A DNA stretch of 32,000 nt from positions 3,840,001-3,872,000 of the forward strand of contig NZ_CP064923.1 of NCBI RefSeq assembly GCF_018336915.1, written 5' to 3'. A program made the position numbers and the translations under genes. The notes beneath the pieces were generated by a model that was not told where the DNA came from, searched no databases, and saw only the letters and a list, made by a program, of their open reading frames with translations. The stretch is from Acaryochloris marina S15. GTDB lineage: Bacteria; Cyanobacteriota; Cyanobacteriia; Thermosynechococcales; Thermosynechococcaceae. Positions 1-30,107 of this stretch are shown here, one piece after another (position 1 is the stretch's first letter; every line of letters begins with the position of its first letter).

Positions 1-567
1 TTTTATCCCCAGCCTCTTTAAGGCTTGATTCAACTCCACTGCGGTAGTCATTTTGCCGCAAGCACAATCTGTACCGAGGACAGCAATGACAGGTACATTC
101 ACTCTAGCTATTTGACCGCTAAAGATATGCAAATCCTTGAGCTGAGGTGGTTTTCTAATATCTTTAATCTGAATACCATGGTGATCAGCCATACGGGCAA
201 ACTCTGGATCTTCAGAGAAAAATTGGTGCAAACCGTTAATGATATCCATGCCCTTGGACATCGCTTCAAGAATTAAGAACCTTTCCACCCTTGAGACACA
301 GGCATCTAAAGGAGCTTTTCCATAGATGTAGCAATTTGGAACTTCTTGTAGCTGGTCTAAAGCCTCATCTAAGTTGGCAAAAATAGGGATGCCGTTTTTA
401 TGATCTCCTAACTCTTCCCCAGCATCTCTTCCCGCTAAAGTACTATCAATAACGCCAACGATGGTATACGCCTCAGAGTGCCGAACTAACCCTGAAGCAG
501 TTTTCCCGTCTACTAAACCAAACTGATTCTCGCAGTAAACTAAAGCCGTCTTTTTCGCAAATGGCAT
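1..567 (-). CDS. DUF1611-domain protein, N-terminal 189 codons (gene continues past the left window edge)
   Basis: My own translation of the minus strand from ATG (565-567) gives MPFAKKTALVYCENQFGLVDGKTASGLVRHSEAYTIVGVIDS...DIRKPP...VLGTDCACGKMTTAVELNQALKRLGIK, open to position 1. The GKTAxGLVR, DIRKPP and GTDCxxGKMTT blocks match my memory of the DUF1611 family. It is absent from the ORF track because it has no stop inside the window. Confidence 0.75.
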   Translation of the reverse strand, partial: MPFAKKTALVYCENQFGLVDGKTASGLVRHSEAYTIVGVIDSTLAGRDAGEELGDHKNGIPIFANLDEALDQLQEVPNCYIYGKAPLDACVSRVERFLILEAMSKGMDIINGLHQFFSEDPEFARMADHHGIQIKDIRKPPQLKDLHIFSGQIARVNVPVIAVLGTDCACGKMTTAVELNQALKRLGIK

Positions 568-593
568 GCAATTAAACCTTTACAATTTTCTCT

Positions 594-642
594 TAAATAC
601 TCAAGAGGCTTTTATAAGATTGCTAAGCCTCTTGAGTATTTA
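594..642. repeat. Perfect 18-bp inverted repeat (TAAATACTCAAGAGGCTT, 13-nt spacer), a strong hairpin that looks like a terminator on the + strand
   Basis: Arms 594-611 and 625-642 are exact reverse complements. On the + strand a T-rich tract follows (tttatttattttttc, about 644-658). It lies about 26 nt upstream of the DUF1611 ATG on the other strand. Confidence 0.9.
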
Positions 643-973
643 GAGTTTATTTATTTTTTCTCACAGGAAGAAACTATTCAGAAAGTACAGTTCCTGAAAT
701 CTAGTGTGATCGTGTTTTTTAAAGATCTACGCAGTTAAAACTGCAGAGCTTAGTAAATTCTTTGGTGAATATAAGTAATGTATATATCGAAGCGAGAAGC
801 TCAGGACCTAGCTGAGTTTTCTTTTAAACCTATACCTATAGAAACTGTAACATATATTACTTTTTAGAATTATTGAATCAAAGATCTTGGTATGCTTTAT
901 TGCCTGAATACAGACTCGCTGATTCCTTACTGCCTACCTTCACCAGCTCAAGGGTGACCGGCTTGATCCTCCG

Positions 974-1239
974 TTTAACGGATTCTGGGGGATCTCTATT
1001 AAGAGCATCTCCAATAGGATGGAGTTCTTATTTCGTAAGCTTTTAAGCCATATTCTTGAAATGATGTTGATCAACTTCTTAAACCCTGATGTCAATAATA
1101 TTAGGTTCAAATTGACCCACTCAGTTTTCAGATGGGAGAATTTATTAAATTCCTGCAAGTCATGTGAAATATGGGATTAAAAGCTTTCTCAGGAACACTT
1201 TCTAGGTTTGGATTTTTAAAGACCCCAGAATCCGTTAAA
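974..1239. repeat. 17-bp perfect inverted repeats bracketing a 232-bp AT-rich segment (MITE-like element or invertible segment)
   Basis: TTTAACGGATTCTGGGG at 974-990 and its exact reverse complement CCCCAGAATCCGTTAAA at 1223-1239. Both arms have TTAA within their outer ends (975-978 and 1235-1238). Confidence 0.85.
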
Positions 1240-1547
1240 ACAAGCAATAACCAGTGTTTAGATATAATTTTCTATAAAAGCACTTTTACCACAAGAGATT
1301 TTAGCCTTAGAAGAAAATTAAAAAGAGGCTGAAACACCCCATATATGCTGATGCATAATATACTCCCTTTGTATAGTGTGTAAGTCCCATGTCTAGGGAT
1401 ATTCAGCGATACGCTAGCATGATCAGTATGATGAAAGTATCGGTTTCACATTTGTTTTCAAGATTGCCAGGTTTATTCCAACTCAATTTTTAAGCCAATA
1501 TACCGATATCCAAATCTCTACACTTTACTAATTTTGGATATAAATTT

Positions 1548-1820
1548 ATGTCGATTTACGTTGGTAACCTCTCATATGACGTTACAGAGCAAGACCTCAA
1601 TACCGCTTTTGCAGAATATGGAACTGTAAAAAGTGCAAAGCTCCCCACTGACCGTGAAACAGGTAAGATTCGGGGATTTGGTTTTGTTGAGATGAGTGAT
1701 GAAGCTGAGGAAGCCAAAGCTATTGAAGAACTAGACGGTGCTGAATGGATGGGGCGTACCCTGAAAGTAAATCAAGCAAAACCTCGTGAAGATAGAGGTG
1801 GTGGTGGAAATCGCTGGTAG
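1548..1820 (+). CDS. RRM-type RNA-binding protein with a short Gly-rich tail (cyanobacterial Rbp class)
   Basis: RNP2 IYVGNL and RNP1 RGFGFVEM are present, with a C-terminal RGGGGNRW. Length of 90 aa is typical of cyanobacterial Rbp proteins. Confidence 0.95.
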   Translation: MSIYVGNLSYDVTEQDLNTAFAEYGTVKSAKLPTDRETGKIRGFGFVEMSDEAEEAKAIEELDGAEWMGRTLKVNQAKPREDRGGGGNRW

Positions 1821-2038
1821 AGGTAATTCTCACTAATGGAACCAGTTAGGAGGTGAGGTGTGATCATCTCAGCCTCCTTGATAGAATACTGCAGAATAAA
1901 GGCTACAAGATTTATGTATTTAGTAAATACATTTTGTCGGAAGTACTTATCTTTAGATGACTCCAAAGGTAGGTTGAAATCATCTCAGTCTACTACCCAT
2001 TTTTCTAGGTGCTCCCAAATCTTGAATTCTAAAATGGC

Positions 2039-2353
2039 TCACTTGTGAAAGTTATCAGCCTGAGAAAGACGATCAGTTCTGTGCTCACTACCTAATGATG
2101 AGACTCTATATTTTTTCTGAGGTCTCGCTTGATCAACCTTCAGATCTCGACCCATCCATTCCGCACCATCAAGGGCTTCAATAGCAGCTTTTTCTTCAGT
2201 ATCAGACTCCATATCAATAAAAGCAAAGCCGCGTATATGGCCTTTTTCATCAGTTGGAAGCTTAACTTTTTTTATTGTCCCATATGATGAAAATACTGTT
2301 TTTAGAGCAATCTCTGTAACGTCATCGGCAAGATTACTAATACGAATTGACAT
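2039..2353 (-). CDS. RRM-type RNA-binding protein, divergent paralogue without a Gly-rich tail
   Basis: RNP2 IRISNL and RNP1 RGFAFIDM are present, and DGAEWMGRxLKV is shared with the neighbouring Rbp. It has an ATG start and is 104 aa. Confidence 0.9.
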   Translation of the reverse strand: MSIRISNLADDVTEIALKTVFSSYGTIKKVKLPTDEKGHIRGFAFIDMESDTEEKAAIEALDGAEWMGRDLKVDQARPQKKYRVSSLGSEHRTDRLSQADNFHK

Positions 2354-2578
2354 ACATTTCCTTTAATCTTCATTGAGTATTGAAAGTGGAATTTTGAATT
2401 TAAATCTGTTTACTAAAAGCGGATTAGTATTTTTGGCATATAGCTTAATCAATACAACGCACCTAAATTAAACACCCTGTAACTTCTAATATTGAGATAT
2501 TAACTAATTGATAGGTAGTGATACTCTAACGCCTCCACTTACCCATATCAGGTTTTGGTAGAAGCTTCCTTCTATTCC

Positions 2579-2785
2579 TCAATCACTCTTCTCTGTTTGT
2601 TTAATGAGAACTTTCGTTTGCCCCACCTCGTCGATATTTATAACGATCTCATCTCCTGCCTTAACACGACTGGTCAGAATTTCCTCAGCAAGACAATCTT
2701 CCAAAAGATGTGTGATCGCTCGACGTAGCGGACGCGCTCCCATCTCAGAATCATAGCCTACATCTACTAGCCGCTCCTTAAACAA
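2579..2785 (-). pseudogene. clpC: 3'-terminal remnant of a clpC-type Clp/Hsp100 ATPase gene (last ~68 codons only)
   Basis: The product FKERLVDVGYDSEMGARPLRRAITHLLEDCLAEEILTSRVKAGDEIVINIDEVGQTKVL matches the C-terminal D2-small domain signature (GARPLRR, LEDxLAEEIL) of ~820-aa ClpC proteins. The frame is closed by TAG five codons upstream of the TTG used by the ORF track. No ClpC-like sequence is recognisable further upstream. Confidence 0.8.
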
Positions 2786-3286
2786 ATCGGTAGTGCGCTA
2801 GCGAAGTGTGGGATACACAGCTAAATCGTTCCAAGTCCAAGGATTCAAGGATAGCTCCGCTTTTTGAGCTGTGGGTACGGCTATGGGTCCAAATCCAGTT
2901 GAAATAGCTTATACCAATTAGCACCTAAGAGTGTAATTCTAATTATTTGCTAAGCCAACTCAGTATTGGGTTTCACGAGTTTGAGAGTTACACCTTCAGG
3001 CACAGCTTGGTATTAGGTAGCAATGCTTGCCCGCACGATTGACAACCCTTCCAACCTCAGGGACGAAACTCACTCAGGAGCCTCAACCCTAGGTCTCTGT
3101 AGGTATCAAAGGCTAGAAACCTAACCTACCGTCAGATTTCTAACACATGATTGAAAGCACCTGGAACTATTGTCCACTCTTCGTTAGTCCAAACTCAAGT
3201 ATTAGAGGCTGATACTTAAATCAGGGGGCTGAATACAGATAGATAAGGGGCGATGAAAAGCAATGTAGTTTCAGTAAATCTTTTAC

Positions 3287-11578: not shown

Positions 11579-13252
11579 TCACCAAGTCACTCTGTTTCGG
11601 AGTTGTTCCAGCAGTTTCGGCCCTATGCCAGGAACTTGATCTAAGTCTGCTAGGGAGGTAAATAGGCGTTCTTGTCTAGCTTCGATTATTCGTTCAGCCA
11701 ACTTGGGCCCCACACCAGGCAATGCCTCCAGTTCCGATTGATTCGCGGTATTCAGATTGACGAGGGTGGCTTGCTTCCCTTCTGGTAAGACGGGTTGGGT
11801 CGTTCCCCTGCCCCTCACCAGCAAATCACCACATTGACGTTGGTGGTCTTGGGCTTTTTTTTGGAGAAAGGCAGGAATGCCTAGACGGCTACTGGCATAC
11901 AACCGCTCAAATTCCCGGTGATAATGCTCTGCAATTTGAGGATGTTCCATCACCAGTAGGGTTTCATCATTGCGACGATTGGCCGCATCTGACCAGTTGT
12001 GAGATCCCACAATCACGATCTGACTATCAACAATGCCAAATTTATGGTGCAGCACATCTCCTTTAGGGAGTTGAGGTGTCCCTACGGTTTGCAAGGGTGG
12101 GGACCAGGGCCGATTTTGGGGTTCAGCCTTGCAGGTCAAAGTTCCACTGCGAGAGGGACTGAGGGTCACTCCTAGCATATCGAGCACTTCGCTATAGCTT
12201 TGATAGGCAAACTGAGGATCACCCAAGACCCGAATTTTCACCCCTTGCTGGTGCTCCCCTGCTAGCTGATCCACCAAGGATTGCTCTGAAAAGACAAATA
12301 ACGCCAAAGCAATGTTCTGTTTGGCTTTAGCTAGGGTTTGGCGGATCAGCCCGTTGGTACTGCGGGACCAAGGCCTAGAGATAGATGTTGGCGAAAATTG
12401 CACTTGCACTTTGGCATTACCAAGCTTAAGAGTTTGGGGTGGACGCCAGGGCTTGTTCACTCCAAATTTGCTATCCGTTGTCCGACCGGGACCATCTCCC
12501 CAAAGGGCCTTAAATTCCTCAGTAAAGAGCTGTGCTAAACCTGGGCTCTCCAGAACGACCAGAGAATTGGCATTCCCCCGACTATCTGGCTGATCTAAGT
12601 CGCCAAGTAGCCCAGACAAAGTAAAGTTGGCCGTCGTCACAATAGTGGTCTGCCCATCAATGACTACAAACTTATGGTGCATCAAACCACTTCCGGCAGA
12701 GCCATCGGCTGTATCATCCAGCCAAGGGATATCAGCTCTACGGAGTACCTGTAGGGCATCATACTCATGGATTTCAGCTGAACTCAGCTCGCCATCTTGA
12801 TTTTGGTCGATCAGCTGAAAATTGGCTTGGTATCGTTTCTTCTGCCGCGGATCCATCCGAGCCACCTCTTGGGACGTAAAGCTACTCCAAGGGCGGCTGT
12901 AGGTATTTTCTAAGATGACTCGGACCTGAACACCGGCTTGTTTGCGGTCTCGCAGGGCCTGGGCGATACGGGGCGATCTCAATTCCTGTATTGCTACATC
13001 TACTGTGGATGTAGCAGCCTGGATATTCTCGACAATAATGGACTCTAAATCATCCCCTGGGCGGGAGATTTGCCGATAGGAATCCGTAAAAGAATTAGCC
13101 AGATTCTGGTTCATATACACCTGAATCTGGCTATGTTGTGGGAGAGGTTGAATGGACTGGAATTGAGGTTGCGATCGCTGCCAACGATTCACCCCAATCC
13201 CTAGAGCACCGAGTAGGACCAGAGAGGTCAATCCCCATTGCAGCCGCTGCAT
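11579..13252 (-). CDS. Two-HKD phospholipase-D-family nuclease fused to a C-terminal ComEA-type helix-hairpin-helix DNA-binding domain, with an EF-hand-like loop
   Basis: HKD motifs HHKFVVIDG and HHKFGIVDS(..)GSHNWSDAANRRNDE are present. The C-terminus LVNLNTANQSELEALPGVGPKLAERIIEAR...LDQVPGIGPKLLEQL is the ComEA HhH pattern. There is an N-terminal TM/signal anchor. The loop DQNQDGELSSAE lies at 12773-12808. The first ATG is at 13252, and the track starts at TTG 13258. Confidence 0.88.
   Translation of the reverse strand: MQRLQWGLTSLVLLGALGIGVNRWQRSQPQFQSIQPLPQHSQIQVYMNQNLANSFTDSYRQISRPGDDLESIIVENIQAATSTVDVAIQELRSPRIAQALRDRKQAGVQVRVILENTYSRPWSSFTSQEVARMDPRQKKRYQANFQLIDQNQDGELSSAEIHEYDALQVLRRADIPWLDDTADGSAGSGLMHHKFVVIDGQTTIVTTANFTLSGLLGDLDQPDSRGNANSLVVLESPGLAQLFTEEFKALWGDGPGRTTDSKFGVNKPWRPPQTLKLGNAKVQVQFSPTSISRPWSRSTNGLIRQTLAKAKQNIALALFVFSEQSLVDQLAGEHQQGVKIRVLGDPQFAYQSYSEVLDMLGVTLSPSRSGTLTCKAEPQNRPWSPPLQTVGTPQLPKGDVLHHKFGIVDSQIVIVGSHNWSDAANRRNDETLLVMEHPQIAEHYHREFERLYASSRLGIPAFLQKKAQDHQRQCGDLLVRGRGTTQPVLPEGKQATLVNLNTANQSELEALPGVGPKLAERIIEARQERLFTSLADLDQVPGIGPKLLEQLRNRVTW
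13171..13178. repeat. HIP1 octamer GCGATCGC
   Basis: Exact match read in the sequence. Confidence 0.95.
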
Positions 13253-13263
13253 CAACAAAAGAT

Positions 13264-13986
13264 CTAAAAGCGGCTAAAAGTCCCTAACTCAGACTCTTCC
13301 AATACCTGCCGGAGAGAATCAACCACCACGGGGGCTTCTACATCTGGGTCTCTAAAAATTCGGCGTGGGGTAATCGATTTGCCATATAAATCGCGGTTCT
13401 TACCTCTGTTAAAGCCGAGCTTAGAGCCATCAATGGCAACACCACCAAACAGACCACTGCTGCGGGCATAGGTCAGAATCGGTGACTTGCTGTAATCTTT
13501 AGTGGGATCAACCGCCGTTGCTCCCACAGGACCCGCTGTCCCTGAGACACTACCGCCGATATCAAAAGACTTGGACAGTACTTCATTGACCGTGCTGCGG
13601 TTGGGAAACACCAAGACAATATCACTCGATTTAGCCCCAATTTGGAGGCCAAAACTGCCGCCAGTGATGTTGATAAAAGCGGGGTTACTCCAAGTGCCAT
13701 CTTCTTGTCGGAGCATCATCACCCCAGTGCCTCGGCGAGCACCAAATAGGAACCCCGCTTGGATGACACCTGGAAAGATAGCAATGCCTTCGCTTTGCTC
13801 TAGCAGTTCTGACGGAATTTGAGTTTTGGGATCACTCAGAATTTCTTCTAAGACATTCTGAGAAGAGTAAATAATCTTTTCGGCATGGGCCTGTTTCTCT
13901 ACATCTGTCGCTGCCATCGTCGGCATAGTGGTGGTGACTACGAGCACTGCTGTTACGGGCACAGCCACCATAGACTTAAATTTCAT
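13264..13986 (-). CDS. Secreted SYLF (Ysc84/DUF500) lipid-binding-domain protein
   Basis: A signal peptide MKFKSMVAVPVTAVLVVTTTMPTMAA is present. The blocks GIAIFPGVIQAGFLFGARRGTGVMM, GGSFGLQIGA and SSGLFGGVAIDGSKL match my memory of the SYLF/DUF500 family. Its stop lies 5-11 nt before the downstream PLD/ComEA start. Confidence 0.8.
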   Translation of the reverse strand: MKFKSMVAVPVTAVLVVTTTMPTMAATDVEKQAHAEKIIYSSQNVLEEILSDPKTQIPSELLEQSEGIAIFPGVIQAGFLFGARRGTGVMMLRQEDGTWSNPAFINITGGSFGLQIGAKSSDIVLVFPNRSTVNEVLSKSFDIGGSVSGTAGPVGATAVDPTKDYSKSPILTYARSSGLFGGVAIDGSKLGFNRGKNRDLYGKSITPRRIFRDPDVEAPVVVDSLRQVLEESELGTFSRF

Positions 13987-14240: not shown

Positions 14241-16694
14241 ATGGTCCCAAAATTCCTTCAATTTATTCGTAACCACTACCGATGGATCTTCCTCAGTCTG
14301 ATCACTGTCACTCTATGTCTTTGCTGGGGCTTACTCGATTCGGTAAGGGGCCAACTCAAGCCTCTTCGAACAGAGGCAGCTCCTTCCTCAACTCTTCAAA
14401 TCTCGACTACAGACTTAGATCCCTATCGCCCAGTCGGCGAGTGGGTGGGACGGCTGATTCTACCGCCACAATCGGCGGATGACACAGATTGGGTCTGGTT
14501 TGAGGTTCACCATAGTCCCAATTCCGAGTTTGCCGGTCAAACAGTGCGATTGCAATGGCAGGATAATCCAGATGTCCAAGCCCGGATCAAACGGGTACAG
14601 CAGGATATCACACTCTCGGCAGAGGCTCACCAAAGCCTAAAGCAAGGCAATATTCACCCAAAGCGATTAGATGGACGACGACAGGTTGGACCGCTACAGT
14701 CCCTAGCAGGAGCAAGACCCACAGATGACCTACTCGTCAGATTGAAAGAGGTCCAAGTCGTCCCTGGCCCTCTTCCTCACCTCGACATTGCCGAAGATCC
14801 CGTACAGGTCGCTGGATTTAACTATGGACTCGTCAAAATCCTCGGTCCAGTCCCAACCTCTCAATCGGTTCCCAATCAATGCCCTGGCCCATCTCCTTGC
14901 CCCAGTGAATTGACTCAGGTTCGTCACTACAACCCCACCACTCAACGGTTTAATGGCCCAGAAGAAATCGTTCACATTCGTCAGGATCAGCCCAATTCAG
15001 CCGGTGTCTTTCAGTCCACTCCCAGGAAGTTAGCAGCATCCCCAGCCGGAAAAGCAGGCTGGTATATCTATGGCTCGCAGAATATGGAGGGGATATTTGA
15101 GGTCAATGGGATCGCACCTCGTTCTCTGTTCCAACTCCAGCCCGATCACCACTTCTCTAGCACTGGCGCCGGACTACACTACTTCAAACGCAAAGTTTGG
15201 CAACAAACGGCTCAACATAAGGGCAAACTCCAACGAGCCATGGTTGATAACCAGCAACGTCAACAACAAGCAGTCTTAGATCAGTGGCAGGAAGGAGATC
15301 AATCCCTAGTCGTACATCTCTTTGGCGGGATTGGTGGTAACAAAGCTGAACCCCAGGCGGTTATCGGTACTATCACGGGTCATTTTGGATATGGTATCGC
15401 GACTGTGATCAACGATCCCTTTACCGGGGAACGACAGTTTGATATTGAGTACCAACAGGTGTACGCCCACAACCCTGAGGGAATTGTAGCCGGACCCACC
15501 CATTGGTCAGAATATATGGGCCATCTCAACCGAGGATGGTTGGGGAGTCGGCCAGTATTGGACGTACTGGTCAAGTCTGAGGCCCTGACGCAGCCCTATG
15601 ACTTTGGCGAGATTGTTCTAGATCCCTTAACTGAGCTAAAAACTCAGCTCCAACTTATGGCGGCACGCTATCGAATGGGTGATGGCACAGGGTCTGCTTT
15701 GGTCACCCCGGCTAAGTCCTGTGTCCAAGATTCCAGCCAAGCAGTTTACCAAACCATTCGGCGAATCCAATATCAGGTGCAGATGTCTCCAGCCATTCAA
15801 ACTTGGTTGGCAGATCACCCACAAGCTCCTCAAACGCTTCGGTTCCAAGAATTAAAGACTTTAGGGAATGCCCTGGAGAAAGAGCTGGTTCCGCTAGGGA
15901 TTGTCCGCAGGGATTGGCAACAAAATGCCCAGGTTGCAGCAGGTATCGCTTTACCAGGAACATTTCGCCACTCAGACGATTTCTTAACTCAAATTCTCAG
16001 CTGGCGAACGCTGATTCCTCGGGTGGCCCAAGATCAAATTATTCGTATTTTCCTCAAGCAAGGCACCCCGCTGTGGTTTCTCAACACCAATCAAGTGGGA
16101 GGTTGGGATGCAGATATCAGCCCCCTAGCCCCCACAGAATTATTTGGGAAGTGGCCGATCGTTTCCTTTTCCTTCTCTCGACTAGTGGAAGGGACCACAA
16201 CGTTCCCGACTCCAATGGGATGGCTCGTCTCAGGGTTGGTTTTAGGAGGATATGGTCTCTTTGCTGTAGCTTGGGGCAGAAAGGTCGGGTTTCTGGCCCC
16301 ACCCAAATTTGCGGTTCATGCCCTATCCGTTCAAGTGAAAATTTGGGTCGGCAGTTTGATCATGCCAGCCCTAGTCGAAGAATTACTCTTTCGCTGCCTG
16401 TTGATTCCCCACCCCCAAGAAGGGGTGTGGTGGGTTACCCTGCTGCTTTGGTCAGGGTTCAGCTTAATCCTCTTTGTGCTATATCATCCCCTCAATGCCC
16501 GCACCCTCTACAAAGTAGGTAATCCAACCTTCTTTAATCCCAGATTTTTAACCTTAGCCACTGTGCTGGGTATGGCCTGTACTTGCACCTATTTATTCAC
16601 AGGCTCAATTTGGCCAGGTACTATCATCCACTGGCTAGTTGTTGCGATTTGGTTGCTGTATTTAGGTGGACAGGAACGCCTGAGCAAAGCCTAG
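14241..16694 (+). CDS. 817-aa membrane protein: unknown ~650-aa N-terminal domain fused to a C-terminal CPBP (CAAX/Abi) intramembrane protease domain
   Basis: An N-terminal TM segment (IFLSLITVTLCLCWGLL) is present. The C-terminal TM bundle carries CPBP motifs EELLFRCLL (EExxxR), FVLYHP (FxxxH) and IIHWLV (HxxxN/D-like). I recognised no family for residues ~40-650. Confidence 0.85.
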   Translation: MVPKFLQFIRNHYRWIFLSLITVTLCLCWGLLDSVRGQLKPLRTEAAPSSTLQISTTDLDPYRPVGEWVGRLILPPQSADDTDWVWFEVHHSPNSEFAGQTVRLQWQDNPDVQARIKRVQQDITLSAEAHQSLKQGNIHPKRLDGRRQVGPLQSLAGARPTDDLLVRLKEVQVVPGPLPHLDIAEDPVQVAGFNYGLVKILGPVPTSQSVPNQCPGPSPCPSELTQVRHYNPTTQRFNGPEEIVHIRQDQPNSAGVFQSTPRKLAASPAGKAGWYIYGSQNMEGIFEVNGIAPRSLFQLQPDHHFSSTGAGLHYFKRKVWQQTAQHKGKLQRAMVDNQQRQQQAVLDQWQEGDQSLVVHLFGGIGGNKAEPQAVIGTITGHFGYGIATVINDPFTGERQFDIEYQQVYAHNPEGIVAGPTHWSEYMGHLNRGWLGSRPVLDVLVKSEALTQPYDFGEIVLDPLTELKTQLQLMAARYRMGDGTGSALVTPAKSCVQDSSQAVYQTIRRIQYQVQMSPAIQTWLADHPQAPQTLRFQELKTLGNALEKELVPLGIVRRDWQQNAQVAAGIALPGTFRHSDDFLTQILSWRTLIPRVAQDQIIRIFLKQGTPLWFLNTNQVGGWDADISPLAPTELFGKWPIVSFSFSRLVEGTTTFPTPMGWLVSGLVLGGYGLFAVAWGRKVGFLAPPKFAVHALSVQVKIWVGSLIMPALVEELLFRCLLIPHPQEGVWWVTLLLWSGFSLILFVLYHPLNARTLYKVGNPTFFNPRFLTLATVLGMACTCTYLFTGSIWPGTIIHWLVVAIWLLYLGGQERLSKA

Positions 16695-16713: not shown

Positions 16714-17691
16714 CTAGTCGTAACACCAGGTATCAAAGGATCGGCTGGGCGGTGCCTGATTCGATCGCACCGGTCGATGAAAGATGGATTTAGTATTAGT
16801 TGGCTTCTTGCGGGTGGTGGCTAATGCTGAGGACTTTTGCGTTTTTCTAGAGGTTGAACTGGTTTGCAGCTCAGCTACTTGTTTTTGCAACCGATCATTC
16901 TCTTTTGCTAATCGCACTGCATCCTGGGTGGTTTGCTCCAGCTTCTCTTTAATCGCATCTGTTTGATGGGTCGATTTCTGCAACGCTGTCAGGGCCGTTT
17001 TCTGCTCAGCCAGCTGTGACTCCAATTGAGCCACCTTCTTCTGCAAAGAGGTTTCTTTGGTTTGAGCTGCCTTTAAATCTTTAGTTAGGGCACTGACTTT
17101 CACTTTTAAATCAGTGTTAATGGATTGAGCACTACTGGCTGCGGAGCTGCTTGCGGTTGAGGCAGGTTTTGCTGCTGCTTTCTGTGCCGTAGAGGCGGCA
17201 GGCTTAGCCTTCTTTGCTGCCGCCGTCTTTGTGGCTGTTGTTTTCCGACTAGAAGATCGGCTGGACGTTGCCTTTTTAGCAGTAGAAGATTTAGTCGTTG
17301 ATTTTTTAGCTGCGGGTGCAGCAGCTTTGGTTGTTGACGTTGACTTCTTAGCTGCTGGTGAAGCAGCTTTGGTTGTTGACGTTGACTTCTTAGCTGCTGG
17401 TGAAGCAGTCTTAGTAGTGGAAGCAGCCTTAGGGGTCGATTTCTTAGCTGCGGGTGCAGCCTTAGTAGCCCCGGCAGTCTTTTTTTCCGTAGTTTTTTTG
17501 GCAGTGGTCGATTTAGCCGTACTTTTCTGGGCTGTCGTTGTCTTTTTCGCTGCAGCTTTTTTCGCTGATGTGGCTTTCTTTTGGGTCGTTGACGCGGCTG
17601 GTTTTGCACCTGCGCCATCTTTTTGATCAGGGGTCGCAGTTTTAGTTGCTTCTTCCCGTAATAAATCTGACAAACTTTTCTTCGTAGCCAT
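16714..17691 (-). CDS. 325-aa disordered K/A/T/S-rich, Q-rich coiled-coil protein with a C-terminal Trp; candidate ParA partner (McdB-like)
   Basis: The ATG at 17689-17691 overlaps the parA-like TAA (17691-17693) as TAATG. Domain order: [15 protein letters not shown], then ~170 aa of AAKK/STTKAA low complexity, then a heptad-like Q/K/E/L segment (about 16864-17121), then a basic tail ending SFDTWCYD. Two other frames are also open because of the repeats. This frame was chosen for the coupling and the coiled coil. Confidence 0.75.
   Translation of the reverse strand: MATKKSLSDLLREEATKTATPDQKDGAGAKPAASTTQKKATSAKKAAAKKTTTAQKSTAKSTTAKKTTEKKTAGATKAAPAAKKSTPKAASTTKTASPAAKKSTSTTKAASPAAKKSTSTTKAAAPAAKKSTTKSSTAKKATSSRSSSRKTTATKTAAAKKAKPAASTAQKAAAKPASTASSSAASSAQSINTDLKVKVSALTKDLKAAQTKETSLQKKVAQLESQLAEQKTALTALQKSTHQTDAIKEKLEQTTQDAVRLAKENDRLQKQVAELQTSSTSRKTQKSSALATTRKKPTNTKSIFHRPVRSNQAPPSRSFDTWCYD
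17321..17404. repeat. Perfect 2 x 42-bp tandem repeat (encodes SPAAKKSTSTTKAA twice), flanked by degenerate copies
   Basis: 17321-17362 and 17363-17404 are identical (gcagctttggttgttgacgttgacttcttagctgctggtgaa). The unit at 17279-17320 is a diverged copy. Confidence 0.95.
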
Positions 17692-18401
17692 TAACTGTCC
17701 CAATCCCGCTTAATTTCATCAACAACGCGGCAATAATCTGCTTTTGCCTCTTTACTATATTTCCCTTTCCATTGTGTAATCGGCTGTCCTTCCAAAGCTG
17801 CCCGTTCATGCGCCTTATAACTACGTACAAAGGCATGAAAAGCCGGAATGCCTAACTCCATCAAAGTGTTTTGAGCATCCAATGCTTCTCGCAAGCTTCG
17901 AGGATCGACCCGAGTTAGTAATACCCGATGAGCCACTCCCGATGGTTTGACTAATGTCCGCACCGTTTCAATTAGAACGGCAATTTCCATTGGGGCAGGA
18001 GGCGTAGGGAGCACTAAATAGTCAACCACAGGAATGACCATTTTCAAAATCTCTGACTCTAGACCTGGTGGCGTATCTACGACGACCAGCTCTTGCTTAC
18101 TGGAACGGCGCAAATTTTTCAATTCTTTCGCGCTAGCCCCAGATTGGACTTGGAATTTAAGGGAATTTGTATCACGCTGGGTCCACCAAGTTGCGGACCC
18201 TTGCGGATCGGCGTCAATTAGGAGAACTTGATGAGCTTCTGCAAATACTGCTGTGAGATTAACAGCCGTGGTGGTTTTACCAACACCACCTTTGCCATTG
18301 AGGACGGCGACAACCTTGGTTTTTGAAGATTTAGAAGGCAACTTGGGCACCGCTAATGATTGCCAATAGTAAGCAGGAGGCTCTGACTTTGCAACTTGCA
18401 A
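17691..18401 (-). CDS. ParA/MinD-family deviant Walker-A ATPase (small, no HTH domain); McdA-like candidate
   Basis: Motifs present: [16 protein letters not shown] (KGGxxGKT with the signature Lys), [14 protein letters not shown] and VVVDTPPG. The start is uncertain: TTG at 18401 in the ORF track, with no ATG before the Walker A. Confidence 0.88.
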
Positions 18402-18580: not shown

Positions 18581-19495
18581 ATGCAGCCAACTCTACATCA
18601 ACTGAAAGTGTTTGAAACTGCTGCCCGCCATGGCAGCTTTACTCGCGCCGCTGAAGAACTTTACCTGACACAACCGACCGTATCAATTCAGATCAAGCAG
18701 CTGTCCAAGACGGTTGGTTTCCCTTTATTCGAGAAGTTGGGAAAACAGCTTTACTTAACAGAAGTTGGCAATCGGTTATTTAGCACCTGTCAATCCATTT
18801 TTGAAGAACTTGATCAATTCGAGATGATTGTCAGTGATTTGCAGGGGATGACCCAAGGCAAGTTACATCTTGCTACAGTCACTACCTGTAAGTATTTTGT
18901 CCCTCGTTTACTGGGTAATTTTTGTGACCAATATCCTGGCATTGATATTTCTCTGAAAATCACTAACCATCTCCAGCTGGAAAAGCGGATGATGGAAAAC
19001 CGAGATGACCTCTACATCCTCAGTCATCCTCCCCAACATATGGATCTCAAAGTTCAGCCTGTCATTAAGAATCCACTTGTAGTGGTAGCTCCACCCAACC
19101 ATCCCCTCGTGGGTCAGAAGAATATCGATATTTCTGCTCTCAATGATGAACGCTTTATTATGCGGGAGTCAGGCTCGGGAACTCGCCATGCTGTTCAGGC
19201 TCTATTCAACAAACATAAAGTCAATGTTGAAATCAAACTAGAACTGGGCAGTAATGAAGCGATCAAACAAGCGATTGCAGGAGGATTGGGAATCTCAGTG
19301 CTATCGCGCCACTCCCTTAATGGTCGAGAATATACTGACCTAGCCATTCTGGATGTCGAACATTTTCCCATTGAGCAGCAATGGTCGGTTGCCTATTTAT
19401 CGGGTAAACATCTCTCTGTTGTGGCCGAAACCTTCCTACACTATTTAGTCTCGGTCACTGATCATGCTGAAATGCCTTGGATACACTTCAAATAA
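18581..19495 (+). CDS. LysR-family transcriptional regulator, CbbR/CmpR-like
   Basis: The N-terminal wHTH MQPTLHQLKVFETAARHGSFTRAAEELYLTQPTVSIQIKQL and later blocks (RESGSGTR, LGSNEAIKQAIAGGLGISVLS) resemble the CbbR/CmpR subgroup as I remember it. It is divergent from the parA-like gene. Confidence 0.9.
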   Translation: MQPTLHQLKVFETAARHGSFTRAAEELYLTQPTVSIQIKQLSKTVGFPLFEKLGKQLYLTEVGNRLFSTCQSIFEELDQFEMIVSDLQGMTQGKLHLATVTTCKYFVPRLLGNFCDQYPGIDISLKITNHLQLEKRMMENRDDLYILSHPPQHMDLKVQPVIKNPLVVVAPPNHPLVGQKNIDISALNDERFIMRESGSGTRHAVQALFNKHKVNVEIKLELGSNEAIKQAIAGGLGISVLSRHSLNGREYTDLAILDVEHFPIEQQWSVAYLSGKHLSVVAETFLHYLVSVTDHAEMPWIHFK

Positions 19496-19657: not shown

Positions 19658-20338
19658 CTAGTTCACCCCATTTACCTGCTGGCTTAAATCATTAACACTT
19701 TGGGACATGATGGCTAAAGCTTGCTGAAGGCTTTCTACATCAGCCCCGGCGCCATTAGGTAGTGCGGGGATCGTAGAGGGTGAAACCGGTAAGGGAATCC
19801 CAATCCCTCCGGTAAAGATAGAATCAACCTCCATTAGACTAGCTCCCGTAGAAGTGGGAACTGCTGTGGAGAGCTGATCAAATTCAGTTTCGCCAGCGTT
19901 GGGCAGAAAAGTACCACGATGTTCAGGGGTAAAGAGGAGTTGGCGATTCAGCAACGCTGGAAAAGGGAATCGTTGCCGGACAAAAACTTCGACATAACCC
20001 CGAAACTCAACAGTGTCGACATTGGGGTCGAGGGTGAGAATATCAGGCTGCAAAATGATTAAGCCTGTGTCCTTGGCTCTGAGTCCAAAGTCATAACAAC
20101 TATCAGCATCCAGAGTGCCAAAATCGTTAGAACCACCGGTATCTCGAATTACAATTAGCTTACTGGTATCGAGAGCTGGGGTTGTTGCATTAAATTTCAA
20201 TCGCAATAACACATCAAAGTTATGGGGATTAGAAACTGTTAGAAAATATCCCTGCAAAATTTTCCGGTTGGAGTTAGATATATTTCCTTCTGCAGGTGTA
20301 ATATCTTTAAGGAGAAGTTCAAAGGTTGAAAGTAGCAT
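19658..20338 (-). CDS. Hypothetical protein (226 aa from ATG), no family recognised
   Basis: This is a long ORF with normal composition for the window. The ATG at 20336-20338 is preceded by AAGGAC, and the ORF-track start at 20368 is a TTG. The product starts MLLSTFELLLKDITPAEGN and has a helical Q-rich C-terminus. Confidence 0.6.
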   Translation of the reverse strand: MLLSTFELLLKDITPAEGNISNSNRKILQGYFLTVSNPHNFDVLLRLKFNATTPALDTSKLIVIRDTGGSNDFGTLDADSCYDFGLRAKDTGLIILQPDILTLDPNVDTVEFRGYVEVFVRQRFPFPALLNRQLLFTPEHRGTFLPNAGETEFDQLSTAVPTSTGASLMEVDSIFTGGIGIPLPVSPSTIPALPNGAGADVESLQQALAIMSQSVNDLSQQVNGVN

Positions 20339-21094
20339 AGAAATGTCCTTTGTGTGATGGTTGATCAATAAATTTCAGTGAGGATCATTGAATGTATTTA
20401 TGAGTAACGATTACTGAGATAAACAGAAGAAAAATGTTCTTTTCAAGTAAAGATCTCAAATTTATCTTCCATAGCCTTTTTAAGGCAAAATAACAAAGCA
20501 GATAGCTTGTTAGTGCCATTGAGAGTTCCTAGGATACTTGAGCATAAAAGTTAGAGGCTAAGCTCTAAACATATGCAGCTTCAATGCCTGACACCTAAAT
20601 TGACTTTTGAAATCTACTAGTGTAGTCATCTTGTTTAGATAGTAGAAGCTCAATGAATTCACCCTGAAAAGGCCATTAAAGAGAGAAGATTTTGATTTGT
20701 TTTAACCTGTCTTCAGTTCGTTAATCTGAAATCAATATAATCCAAAAAAACTTAGATAAAAGTGATTATCTTCAATATTTTGTGTGACATAAATCATTGA
20801 AAATTTCTTCTTTGTATAAAATATTTTTTATGCTTATAAATAATATTATATGCTTTTTCTGTAGTATTTTTGTTGCAGGAAAGATGCAATAAAAACAAGT
20901 CCAGTATGATTCTAATTGGGTCGCATCTATAGGCTAAGTAATATAGAAATATTTTTAAAATTCGTACCTTTAAAAACTACTGTGTAGAAATCAATGGCCA
21001 TCAATACAGGCGAGAATGATACGGAATTCAGCTCTAGGTAAAGGTTTCTATATGGTTTGATTTCGATTTAAATCTCCAATCTTCTGACTTGAAG

Positions 21095-27984: not shown

Positions 27985-28474
27985 TCCATGTTGCACGAGG
28001 CGTTCACCAACCCAGATGTTCTTTGAACGAATTTATAGGTGAAGCTGATCTAGAGAAATGAATTGTACCTAGATAGCTAAATGAGAAACATCACAGAGGA
28101 AAACTGCAGATTACAAAGTTGAATATCACTTCACAACCCTACAGATACCATTACTATTTCTAGACGTTAGAGAAAGTCTTTTGTTCTATACATCTAAAAA
28201 TAATTTGCCCCTGAGAGAGACTGAATTAAAACTTTGTAAAGTAATTGACACAAAGGTTCTACTGCATTGAACCTCACACAGATAAATTGTAATCTTCTCA
28301 AGAAAAATTTGTGAATCTTCTTAAAGAATGATCTATCTAACTGTTTAGCTAAAATAGCTAAATCAAGGTTTCATGATTCAGAGAAAAAGCAATAGCACTT
28401 GAGATGAGAAATGCTTCTTCACTAGTTGGTTTTAAAAGCTGCTGAAAAAGTAATGCCTTCAACCAGGGAAGGGA

Positions 28475-29587
28475 CTATTGGGACGTAAACAGCGCTCCAG
28501 GTCTTAATCGTAGCTTGCCTCGTCGTTTGTTTTTTTGCTGATGGAGTGCTTGCTGTAAGCGTCCTACTAATTCTAAGGTTCGTCGCGACTCCAAAGAGGC
28601 ACAATCTTTTTGATGAGTCTGGACGCGGTTGCGTCCCTGTTGCTTAGCCACATACAAAGCACGATCGGCCGCTTCAATCAGGATAGAAGGGGCCACATTC
28701 TCATCAGGCACCTGACTGGCAACCCCTAAGCTCGCGGTAACATTATTTCCTGTTAAAGAGAGTTGGTGAGGAATCTCAAGATTATGAATAATACTTCGGA
28801 TAGCTTCTGCGACTTGGGTTGCCCCATCTAAATCAGTATTCGGTAAGATAATGGCAAACTCTTCACCACCATAGCGAGCAACACAGTCGGCAGGTCGTTT
28901 AGCCACTTTAGCAATCGCTTGAGCAACTTTGCGCAGGCAGTCATCTCCAGCTTGATGACCATAGGTATCGTTAAACGCTTTGAAGTGATCTACATCGCAC
29001 ATAATCAAAGACAAGGGATGATTCTCTCGACATAATCTGTTCCATTCCGATAAAAAGGTTTCATCGAAGCAACGGCGATTATTGACCTGAGTTAAACCAT
29101 CTATCGTTACCAGTTGTTCCAGCTGCAGGTTGGCAATTTCAAGCTGTTCAGACAGAGATTGCAACGTTCGATTTTTGGCATCCAGTTCTAGTAATAAGCT
29201 TTGGCGTTCAACCGCATACTGAATAGAGCGACGTAAATGGCTACTTGTAAACCGTCCTTTAACTAAATAGTCTTGAGCACCTTCTTGCATCGCTGTCAGA
29301 GCGACCGTCTCATCTGAATTGCCACTCAATATAATCACGGGAGTTAAAGGAAATGCTTGATTGACTTGGTGGAAAAGATCAAGTCCTACCGTTCCTGCAA
29401 TACACAAATCTAGGAGAACGAGATCAATCGCAATCTCAGACTCTAATAACTCAAACCCAGCCACTAGGTTGGAACAGTGTAAAAGATCTGTAGGGAAATC
29501 ATGACTGACATTCAGCAATTCCCGAACAATTTCCACGTCCTGCTCGTCATCATCGATCATGAGGATATTGAGATGAGCAGCTTGCAT
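28475..29587 (-). CDS. Response regulator (REC) - coiled-coil - GGDEF diguanylate cyclase
   Basis: REC features ILMIDDDEQD, DLVLLDL and the lysine (K) in DYLVKG are present. GGEEF is intact with an RxxD (RPAD) I-site. Confidence 0.9.
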   Translation of the reverse strand: MQAAHLNILMIDDDEQDVEIVRELLNVSHDFPTDLLHCSNLVAGFELLESEIAIDLVLLDLCIAGTVGLDLFHQVNQAFPLTPVIILSGNSDETVALTAMQEGAQDYLVKGRFTSSHLRRSIQYAVERQSLLLELDAKNRTLQSLSEQLEIANLQLEQLVTIDGLTQVNNRRCFDETFLSEWNRLCRENHPLSLIMCDVDHFKAFNDTYGHQAGDDCLRKVAQAIAKVAKRPADCVARYGGEEFAIILPNTDLDGATQVAEAIRSIIHNLEIPHQLSLTGNNVTASLGVASQVPDENVAPSILIEAADRALYVAKQQGRNRVQTHQKDCASLESRRTLELVGRLQQALHQQKNKRRGKLRLRPGALFTSQ

Positions 29588-29954
29588 TTTTCAGGGGCCC
29601 CCTTGTCAAAAAATTAGACGTTCTTCTGGGCAAAAATTCACTGTCATTCCGAACTAATACGGAGAAGATAAGTCCTTAGGTATATCACTTATACCGCCCT
29701 ATGATGCCCAAAATCTTCCGTAATCCTACGTATCTTTAAGGCTCCGAGGAATGAAAATAATCGAGATAGATTCGAGGTATTCCAGGATATTTGGGCCATC
29801 GTCCATCCTATGCCAGAGTCAATTCTACGCCATTTCTTTTATGCCAGGATGATTACTGTTAGGCCTTGTTTTTTGTAGTTTTAGATACAATCTGCTATCG
29901 TTTTCCAGTTATCTCTGGCTAGCTAGAAAATACTTGCTGATCATTGTTTCTTGT

Positions 29955-29971
29955 TATTCAATAATTGAATA
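29955..29971. promoter_or_regulatory. Perfect 8-1-8 palindrome TATTCAAT-A-ATTGAATA
   Basis: Read directly from the sequence. It lies in the 520-bp spacer downstream of the M19 dipeptidase stop (30108) and upstream of the REC-GGDEF start (29587). Confidence 0.35.
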
Positions 29972-30107
29972 GTTTGCACTCTCTTTAATTGAGATATGTG
30001 TCGTTTAAATTAACCCAATCTGGTAAAAATATTGAATTGATTAGCACTTGGATGCCTAGCTTTTGGCGGTTGTGATATTCGCTATCCACCTGACAGATGA
30101 CTGAGGC

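Follow-up and report, generated by a model that had tools for sequence, protein, structure and literature searches.

A possible bifunctional membrane enzyme of cyanobacteria: a large, predicted extracytoplasmic module joined to a CPBP/Rce1-like domain

The window analyzed here is a 32,000-nucleotide stretch of the Acaryochloris marina S15 genome (contig NZ_CP064923.1, positions 3,840,001 to 3,872,000, forward strand). It contains an open reading frame (ORF) at 14241..16694 (+) that starts with ATG and encodes a protein of 817 amino acids (aa), at coordinates identical to those of the first-pass annotation. In order, the protein consists of an N-terminal signal-anchor transmembrane (TM) helix, a soluble module of ~590 aa, and five TM helices that carry the motifs of CPBP intramembrane proteases. 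The preferred explanation, held tentatively, is a bifunctional membrane enzyme in which an exported thiol-type module of unrecognized fold is joined to a largely intact CPBP domain facing the opposite side of the membrane, the two acting on two ends of a substrate. The evidence for this explanation is the conservation of the fusion, a set of nearly invariant polar residues within the module, and the predicted orientation of the two halves.

Architecture and conservation of the fused protein

Hydropathy and the secondary structure of an AlphaFold2 (AF2) model place six TM helices at aa 13-36, 658-681, 695-720, 731-754, 767-787, and 790-807. The first of these, the signal anchor TM1, follows a basic, predicted cytoplasmic N-tail (aa 1-12), and together they occupy 14241..14348 (all features of this gene lie on the + strand), as judged from hydropathy, charge, and an AF2 helix at aa 2-35. 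The module, delimited by AF2 and profile searches to aa ~61-650 (14421..16190), has a beta-rich N-terminal half followed by a C-terminal half composed of a beta-meander and helices. TM2 (aa 658-681, 16212..16283) is supported by hydropathy, an AF2 helix over the same residues, and a loop charge of +1.8, and it would lead the chain back to the cytoplasm. The first-pass annotation had described a single TM segment and about 600 unassigned residues ahead of the CPBP part. The segment is found at aa 13-36, and ~620 residues are unmatched in Pfam, NCBIfam, and PDB sequences, but the additional helix at aa 658-681 had been missed.

The fusion is widely conserved. A database search with the whole protein returned 1578 relatives at E<=1e-3. 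The best 120 of these 1578 are ~750-877 aa long, with query coverage of 88-100% and identity of 44-99%; all contain PF02517, and those that are named are all cyanobacterial. The named taxa among the matches are Acaryochloris (81%), Thermosynechococcaceae, Leptolyngbya, Phormidium, Microcoleus, Nostoc, Anabaena, Chamaesiphon, and Synechocystis sp. An alignment of 111 sequences, comprising the window protein and 110 full-length cyanobacterial homologues (45-88% identity) from NCBI, JGI, ENA, and Logan assemblies, is collinear across the module and CPBP halves and is termed the fused family below. At the junction of the halves (aa 640-660), AF2 predicts a continuous helix-loop-TM arrangement. All CPBP-fused forms fall into one clade of a module tree built with 107 representative relatives. 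In four clade members first counted as CPBP-less, the C-terminal tail is CPBP-like after all, and several of the “module-only” members stem from gene calls that are visibly cut short. The tree, a crude one made by neighbor-joining with midpoint rooting, fits a single fusion event.

The C-terminal half resembles the Rce1-like proteases. PF02517 (Rce1-like) is the sole Pfam match of the protein (aa 700-801, E=3.6e-11, 43.6 bits against a curated cutoff of 22.4), and the core is formed by the last four TM helices (16338..16643), which AF2 also predicts. The EELLFR, FxxxH, and final-helix His motifs are all where the first-pass annotation had placed them. Motif 1, EELLFR (aa 713-718, 16377..16394), lies in a TM helix, with E713 retained in 109/111 fused sequences and both E714 and R718 in 111/111. 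Motif 2, F745xxxH749 (16473..16487), lies in the next TM helix (F745 101/111, H749 108/111). Motif 3, H797xxxV801 (16629..16643), lies in the last TM helix and is degenerate: H797 is kept in 111/111, and the Asn/Asp position, 801, is occupied by Val in 98 fused sequences, Ala in 9, Leu in 2, and Ile in 1, never by Asn or Asp. In MmRce1, the motif 3 pair is H227/N231, and N231 forms the oxyanion hole (PMC5874806). The predicted catalytic set of the CPBP half, E713, E714, R718, H749, and H797, is nearly complete.

The likeness to MmRce1 (PDB 4CAD) rests on the C-terminal 120 residues, which score above the PF02517 threshold and carry EExxxR, FxxxH, and the motif-3 His on consecutive TM helices, and on the EExxxR helix, which is predicted to run from inside to outside like TM4 of MmRce1. 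The differences are considerable. The equivalent of N231 is Val, five TM helices are present here rather than eight, a ~590-aa extracytoplasmic module is predicted to sit between the signal anchor and the core, and no prenylation context is found. A single helix precedes the core, compared with three in MmRce1, and therefore the lateral opening of the CPBP domain may be wider. Neither phmmer against PDB sequences nor Foldseek retrieved 4CAD, and the PDB sequence search found no match with the whole protein or with the CPBP part alone. Among NCBIfam models, the best result for the whole protein was only 20 bits to ABC_perm_CPBP, against a cutoff of 435.

The module, its conserved residues, and its relatives

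The first-pass annotation pointed to conserved-looking blocks in the module, which are located at aa 359-370 (HLFGGIGGNKAE), 380-389 (GHFGYGIATV), and 477-490 (YRMGDGTGSALVTP). Their conservation is real and far beyond chance, since it holds in the 111 fused sequences and in a diverse set of 64 relatives. The diverse set contains fused, stand-alone, and all alternatively fused forms at 30-50% identity, in five or more architectures. Residues G380, H381, G385, Q406, G427, G432, R478, G482, and G484 are present in 64/64 of these sequences, C494 in 63/64, H359, Q496, and D497 in 61/64, and D441 in 59/64. Within the fused family, H359, G362, G380, H381, G385, R478, G480, G482, and G484 are invariant or nearly so, C494 is present in 111/111, and the module core (aa 350-500) is conserved at least as strongly as the CPBP part.

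These residues are arranged in five blocks. The HLFGGIGG block (aa 359-366, 15315..15338) places H359 at the end of a beta-strand, with G362 in 62/64 of the diverse sequences. The GHFGYG block (aa 380-385, 15378..15395) contains H381, the candidate catalytic His, at the start of the strand formed by aa 381-391. The YxQVYAHN block (aa 404-411, 15450..15473) surrounds Q406 with Y404 (59/64) and Y408 (61/64). The RYRxGDGTG block (aa 476-484, 15666..15692) is a glycine-rich loop with the invariant R478, and the SCVQDS block (aa 493-498, 15717..15734) carries C494, the candidate nucleophile. Across the motif alignment, the signature blocks read GHF[SA][FY]G, YxQVYAHN, RYRxGxGTG, and SCVQDS. The window protein, itself the search query, matches the module family profile over its full length, with H381, Q406, R478, and C494 in place.

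In both AF2 models that were made, C494 sits in the opening turn of the long helix formed by aa 490-515, and H381 is at its strand start. R478 and the glycine-rich loop, a region of low confidence, come directly before the C494 helix; confidence (predicted local distance difference test, pLDDT) dips to 59 at aa 481-490, and the loop is probably mobile. Because H381, Q406, and R478 are invariant in the diverse set and C494 is present in all but one member, the module is probably an enzyme. An invariant Cys together with invariant His, Arg, and Gln is a sequence signature of thiol-based catalysis. The first-pass annotation had proposed a dedicated sensor, substrate-recruitment, or enzymatic module, which was a reasonable proposal, and the invariant polar residues lean towards the enzymatic option.

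The first-pass annotation could assign this region to no family, and the wider searches also returned none. Pfam, NCBIfam, PADLOC, and PDB sequences have no match to the ~590-aa module, and Pfam run on 44 module members singly found no family common to even two. Profile searches of the PDB with the full-length and module alignments gave chance-level matches only. The AF2 model of the full-length protein, made with the family alignment, has a pLDDT of 87.9 and a predicted template modeling score (pTM) of 0.85, with the module mostly at pLDDT >90; the model of aa 345-650 alone has a pLDDT of 81.5 and a pTM of 0.83. Against 350,542 PDB chains, the best Foldseek E-value was 0.87 with the full-length model and 0.15 with that of aa 345-650. 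TM-scores were <0.2 by query length, and target-normalized values of ~0.45 arose only for targets of ~80 residues, where they are meaningless. A viral fold library gave a best E of 0.049 and no fold match. No Pfam model, solved structure, or paper on the module was found in the literature. The architecture itself is already in databases under generic names, and the CPBP half belongs to a known family, from which it departs in one motif.

The nearest analogy is to the permuted NlpC/P60 acyltransferases and hydrolases, a group that includes Lnb/DUF4105, LRAT, YiiX, and Tox-Act1 (PMC12994826). As in that group, the candidate His of the module precedes the candidate Cys, which lies where a helix begins; the members are exported and membrane-proximal; and in one relative, P0189, the module adjoins an Lnb_N domain. 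The module is about four times larger, however, and has no detectable similarity to them. A permuted papain-like or NlpC/P60 identity was rejected after Pfam on the 44 members, hhalign against the Lnb_N domain of P0189 (probability 0.3%), and Foldseek with both models were all negative. As the relationship failed every test that was run, it is kept as an analogy only.

An exhaustive HMMER search with aa 35-655 against 1.84 billion cluster representatives (50% identity clusters) defined a module family of 416 clusters at E<=1e-3, 211 of them at E<=1e-30. A census of architectures was taken over the best 150 of the 416 clusters together with the window protein. The module alone was found in 109 sequences (39 of them fragments), and the module with CPBP in 19, plus 4 with CPBP-like tails. 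Eight sequences of ~1150-1260 aa (P0146, P0147, P0148, P0149, P0165, P0172, P0198, and P0201), one of them from a Leptolyngbyaceae metagenome-assembled genome, begin with a conserved polytopic membrane domain (aa ~25-350) that has no Pfam match, followed by a conserved ~300-aa region and then the module. The same ~300-aa region also precedes the module in the ~930-960-aa proteins P0145, P0158, P0182, P0320, and P0372. Other N-terminal extensions occur in 7 sequences.

Three further cases involve enzymes. P0189 has a C-terminal Lnb_N/DUF4105 (lipoprotein N-acyltransferase-type) domain after the module; P0235, from a cluster of 15 members, has an N-terminal alpha/beta-hydrolase before it; and on a high-GC metagenomic contig (L085 3689..6704), an exported chlorophyllase/PAF-acetylhydrolase-like alpha/beta hydrolase is encoded 29 nt upstream of the module gene P0323. 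Membrane anchors and such lipid/ester-type enzymes are the sole recurring partners of the module. In every architecture the module profile is covered at positions ~15-580 of 582, and therefore the module behaves as one evolutionary unit rather than a set of separable domains.

A degenerate-motif scan of 185,579 species-representative genomes confirmed 335 loci, and the 80 listed are essentially all cyanobacterial; non-cyanobacterial forms are few and lie on high-GC metagenomic contigs. At least three cyanobacterial paralogue lineages are present: fused, TM-anchored stand-alone (615-692 aa), and polytopic-N. Fused and stand-alone copies occur in the same genome in Microcoleus sp. A006_D1 (L028, L067) and A003_D6 (L058, L072), and a further stand-alone paralogue lies at L060 5632..7707. 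The 256-aa protein encoded immediately upstream of the Microcoleus stand-alone paralogue is soluble and has no relationship to the polytopic N-domain of the longest (1200-aa) forms. With regard to phylogenetic distribution, which the first-pass annotation had proposed to check, the fusion is cyanobacteria-wide and forms one clade, but the module is not tied to CPBP and often occurs alone. One copy is fungal: P0257 (KAI9142029.1) of Paraphysoderma sedebokerense, a blastocladiomycete parasite of green algae, has an N-terminal hydrophobic segment, the module at aa 33-631, and C-terminal TPR repeats. This copy may have been acquired by horizontal transfer.

Orientation and possible function

Mean net charges over the 111 fused sequences are +3.3 for the N-tail, ~0 after TM1, +1.8 for the TM2-3 loop, -0.9 for the TM3-4 loop, +1.1 for the TM4-5 loop, 0 for the TM5-6 turn, and +1.4 for the C-tail. 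This is a clean positive-inside pattern, which predicts that the N- and C-termini are inside and the module is outside. The stand-alone relatives independently favor a module located outside, as many of them begin with a Sec signal peptide (e.g., P0196, P0200, P0211, P0219) or a lipobox typical of lipoproteins (e.g., P0162, P0188, P0191, P0204, P0217). The C214-x5-C220 pair (14880..14900), conserved in 106/111 and 105/111 fused sequences, respectively, is likely a disulfide and would fit an oxidizing compartment. The module is thus predicted to lie on the non-cytoplasmic side of the membrane, in either the periplasm or the thylakoid lumen.

The orientation of the CPBP half can be estimated from MmRce1, in which both termini are lumenal, TM4 runs from cytosol to lumen, R145 closes the cone on the lumen side, and the cavity opens to the cytosol and, between TM2 and TM4, laterally (PMC5874806). 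In the fused protein, the EExxxR helix (aa 695-720) is predicted to run from inside to outside, with H749 near the cytoplasmic end of the next helix. Because the EExxxR helix shares its direction with TM4 of MmRce1, the CPBP cavity should open to the cytoplasmic, inner-leaflet side, opposite the module, in an analogy drawn at very low identity. A cavity on the side of the module was rejected on the basis of the MmRce1 topology (PMC5874806) and the family-wide charges. A lumen-proximal proteome of Synechococcus PCC 7002 contains a “CAAX amino terminal protease”, A0275, corresponding to Synechocystis slr0959 (PMC7880944). Its orthology to the large fusion could not be established, and it was not used as evidence.

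In the tentatively favored bifunctional enzyme, the signal anchor, with its N-terminus inside, precedes the ~590-aa module outside the membrane, and TM2 leads back into the minimal four-helix CPBP core. The module would be a catalytic domain of a fold not seen before, built around H381, Q406, R478, and C494, with H359, D441, Q496, and D497 in addition. In the most economical chemistry, it would be a thiol (Cys-His) hydrolase or transferase whose substrate is either lipid-linked or a protein of the envelope or lumen. Each of the two active sites would then work on a different end of a substrate that spans the membrane or is anchored in it. For example, an exported segment could be processed outside, and the TM or juxtamembrane remnant cleaved or cleared within the membrane. 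The module would work alone in many lineages, and the CPBP fusion would have arisen once in cyanobacteria and been kept as a single-copy gene in a housekeeping style.

Several points weigh against this explanation. The closeness in space of H381, C494, R478, and Q406 is something we infer, binding of a metal or a ligand would account for these residues just as well, and no likeness to papain-like, NlpC/P60, or any other fold is detected. The replacement of the Rce1 oxyanion Asn by Val means that CPBP activity may be altered or lost. With one site on each face of the membrane, the two could not act together directly on a single bond, and the proposed coupling is speculative. A subset of relatives, which cluster with the polytopic-N forms, have no export signal. 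The alpha/beta-hydrolase association consists of three cases; because the two hydrolases are not close homologues, it gives only a weak hint of acyl/ester chemistry at the membrane surface. Finally, the window and three orthologous loci (Nostoc sp. MS1, Phormidium tenue FACHB-886, and the locus encoding P0018) have no neighbors in common that might name a substrate.

The best surviving alternative, an unlikely one, is a sensor-coupled protease, in which the module binds a periplasmic or lumenal cue and the CPBP domain cleaves a regulator. BlaR1 and MecR1 consist of an M56 zinc protease and a penicillin-binding domain, and enzyme-derived covalent sensors such as BlaR1 are an established principle. 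By analogy, the cue may react covalently through C494 and then switch on the cytoplasm-facing CPBP domain. The likeness lies in the geometry of a transmembrane signaling protease, with an extracytoplasmic, enzyme-like domain and a membrane protease facing the cytoplasm in one polypeptide, a topology that is predicted here. The families are unrelated, however, and the four loci compared (the window and the three orthologous loci) contain no partner repressor gene next door, no other adjacent regulator, and no conserved neighbor. The module is also found secreted, as a lipoprotein, or otherwise anchored, with the same invariant residues and no protease, and therefore it has a function of its own. 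At least four polar residues kept invariant across 30% identity are also more typical of catalysis than of ligand sensing.

Slightly more doubtful is a non-catalytic module that binds a metal or ligand or attaches covalently. It would serve in anchoring or as a chaperone or metallochaperone, and the CPBP domain would be a membrane anchor or a quality-control protease. H359, H381, C494, and D497 are the kinds of residues that make up a tetrahedral metal site. Bacterial thioester domains combine an invariant Cys and Gln, as the module does, which would allow an internal thioester between C494 and Q406, and the lack of a fold match to any hydrolase also agrees with a binding role. Against it, the Pfam thioester, metallochaperone, and cupredoxin models match 0/44 members, an invariant Arg and a glycine-rich, probably mobile loop beside the Cys are more typical of substrate handling, and ~590 residues are large for a simple binding site.

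The bifunctional enzyme also has a bolder and rather improbable version, in which a new-fold exported Cys-His(-Arg/Gln) family is welded to CPBP as a trans-membrane machine that would “process outside, clear inside”. The module could, for instance, be a transpeptidase or acyltransferase of sortase-like type that matures a protein of the envelope or thylakoid lumen, and the CPBP domain would dispose of the leftover membrane-spanning signal. The sortase triad is made up of the same kinds of residues as the invariant His/Cys/Arg set. If this version is true, it would represent a previously unrecognized protein-maturation pathway in most cyanobacteria. For the favored bifunctional enzyme in general, a precedent is given by the myxosortases MrtC and MrtP. 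These CPBP sorting enzymes bear large and unrelated N-terminal domains and are proposed to be bifunctional (preprint 10.1101/2023.01.19.524832). The fused protein is built in the same way, with a large N-terminal domain on a CPBP glutamic intramembrane protease. It differs in that its N-terminal module belongs to another, unnamed family, and no NCBIfam subfamily matches it even though NCBIfam carries curated sortase-type models. Neither a type II secretion system context nor a Cys-containing C-terminal sorting signal was identified, and no candidate sorting target is adjacent in the window or the three orthologous loci, the loci being all that was searched for one. The protein is not classed as a myxosortase.

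A role in abortive infection, bacteriocin immunity, or another conflict system, which the first-pass annotation evoked with the term “Abi”, is very improbable. Some CPBP proteins do have abortive-infection or immunity roles, and the only support here comes from database names, “Abi (CAAX) family protease” and “abortive infection protein”. NCBI and JGI give these names to the CPBP-less stand-alone paralogue as well, so the name has spread by similarity, and on that paralogue it looks like a propagated misannotation. PADLOC returned 0 matches, tblastn of the module found no phage and only two cyanobacterial plasmids, the gene is widely kept in cyanobacteria (the 335 loci above), and its surroundings in the window and the three orthologous loci are housekeeping genes with no defense island. 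An artefact, whether two genes joined by a sequencing or assembly frameshift, as the first-pass annotation had cautioned, or a mis-called ORF, can be dismissed for practical purposes because 110 independent full-length homologues hold both parts in one frame, and the continuous junction and the monophyly of the fused forms likewise refute it.

Genomic setting and significance

The gene is flanked upstream by a divergent Ysc84/SYLF gene (13264..13986, -) and downstream by a convergent gene (16714..17703, -), whose end lies 19 nt past the stop codon. This arrangement makes the 817-aa ORF its own transcription unit. The remaining ORFs that overlap 14241..16694 are short or out of frame and without any support, and Rfam, tRNA, and promoter/terminator scans gave nothing relevant to the gene. 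The loci of the fusion gene are unrelated housekeeping neighborhoods, and synteny was rejected as a clue to function.

Several other features of the window stand on their own. A ParA-like ATPase (17691..18401, -) with the signature-lysine Walker A motif GKGGVGKT overlaps by 13 nt the gene for a 329-aa protein (the pair spanning 16714..18401, -). The 329-aa protein is rich in Ala, Lys, Thr, and Ser, with a charged N-terminus, a coiled coil, no Pfam match, and a C-terminus ending in DTWCYD, with Trp among the final four residues. The pair fits published criteria for a Type 2 McdA/McdB carboxysome-positioning pair (PMC7182216), and a LysR-type regulator (18581..19495, +) is divergent from it. On the other side, a 559-aa protein (11579..13258, -) starts with a TM segment, continues with two PLD-like (PLDc_2) domains, and ends in a ComEA-type helix-hairpin-helix DNA-binding domain. 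Such a combination is unusual and suggests a PLD-family nuclease that is exported or bound to the membrane. Low-GC patches occur at 20001..21000 (0.33), 1..3000 (0.37-0.40), and 28001..30000 (0.41), compared with ~0.47-0.51 elsewhere. A 236-aa ORF without a Pfam match (19658..20368, -) borders the first of these.

CPBP proteases are abundant in bacteria and plastids, and almost none have a known substrate. Here, across much of the cyanobacterial phylum, one is tied to a large, highly conserved, and apparently catalytic extracytoplasmic domain in what looks like a single gene of housekeeping type. The fusion provides a handle on both halves, as the target of the module is probably connected to that of the CPBP domain, and the gene is well defined, widely conserved, and experimentally tractable. 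The module family comprises 416 clusters, at least three paralogue lineages in cyanobacteria, exported forms from uncultured bacteria, and a single fungal copy, and it is worth naming and solving structurally. It is a good candidate for a new enzyme fold that works at the envelope or the thylakoid membrane of cyanobacteria.

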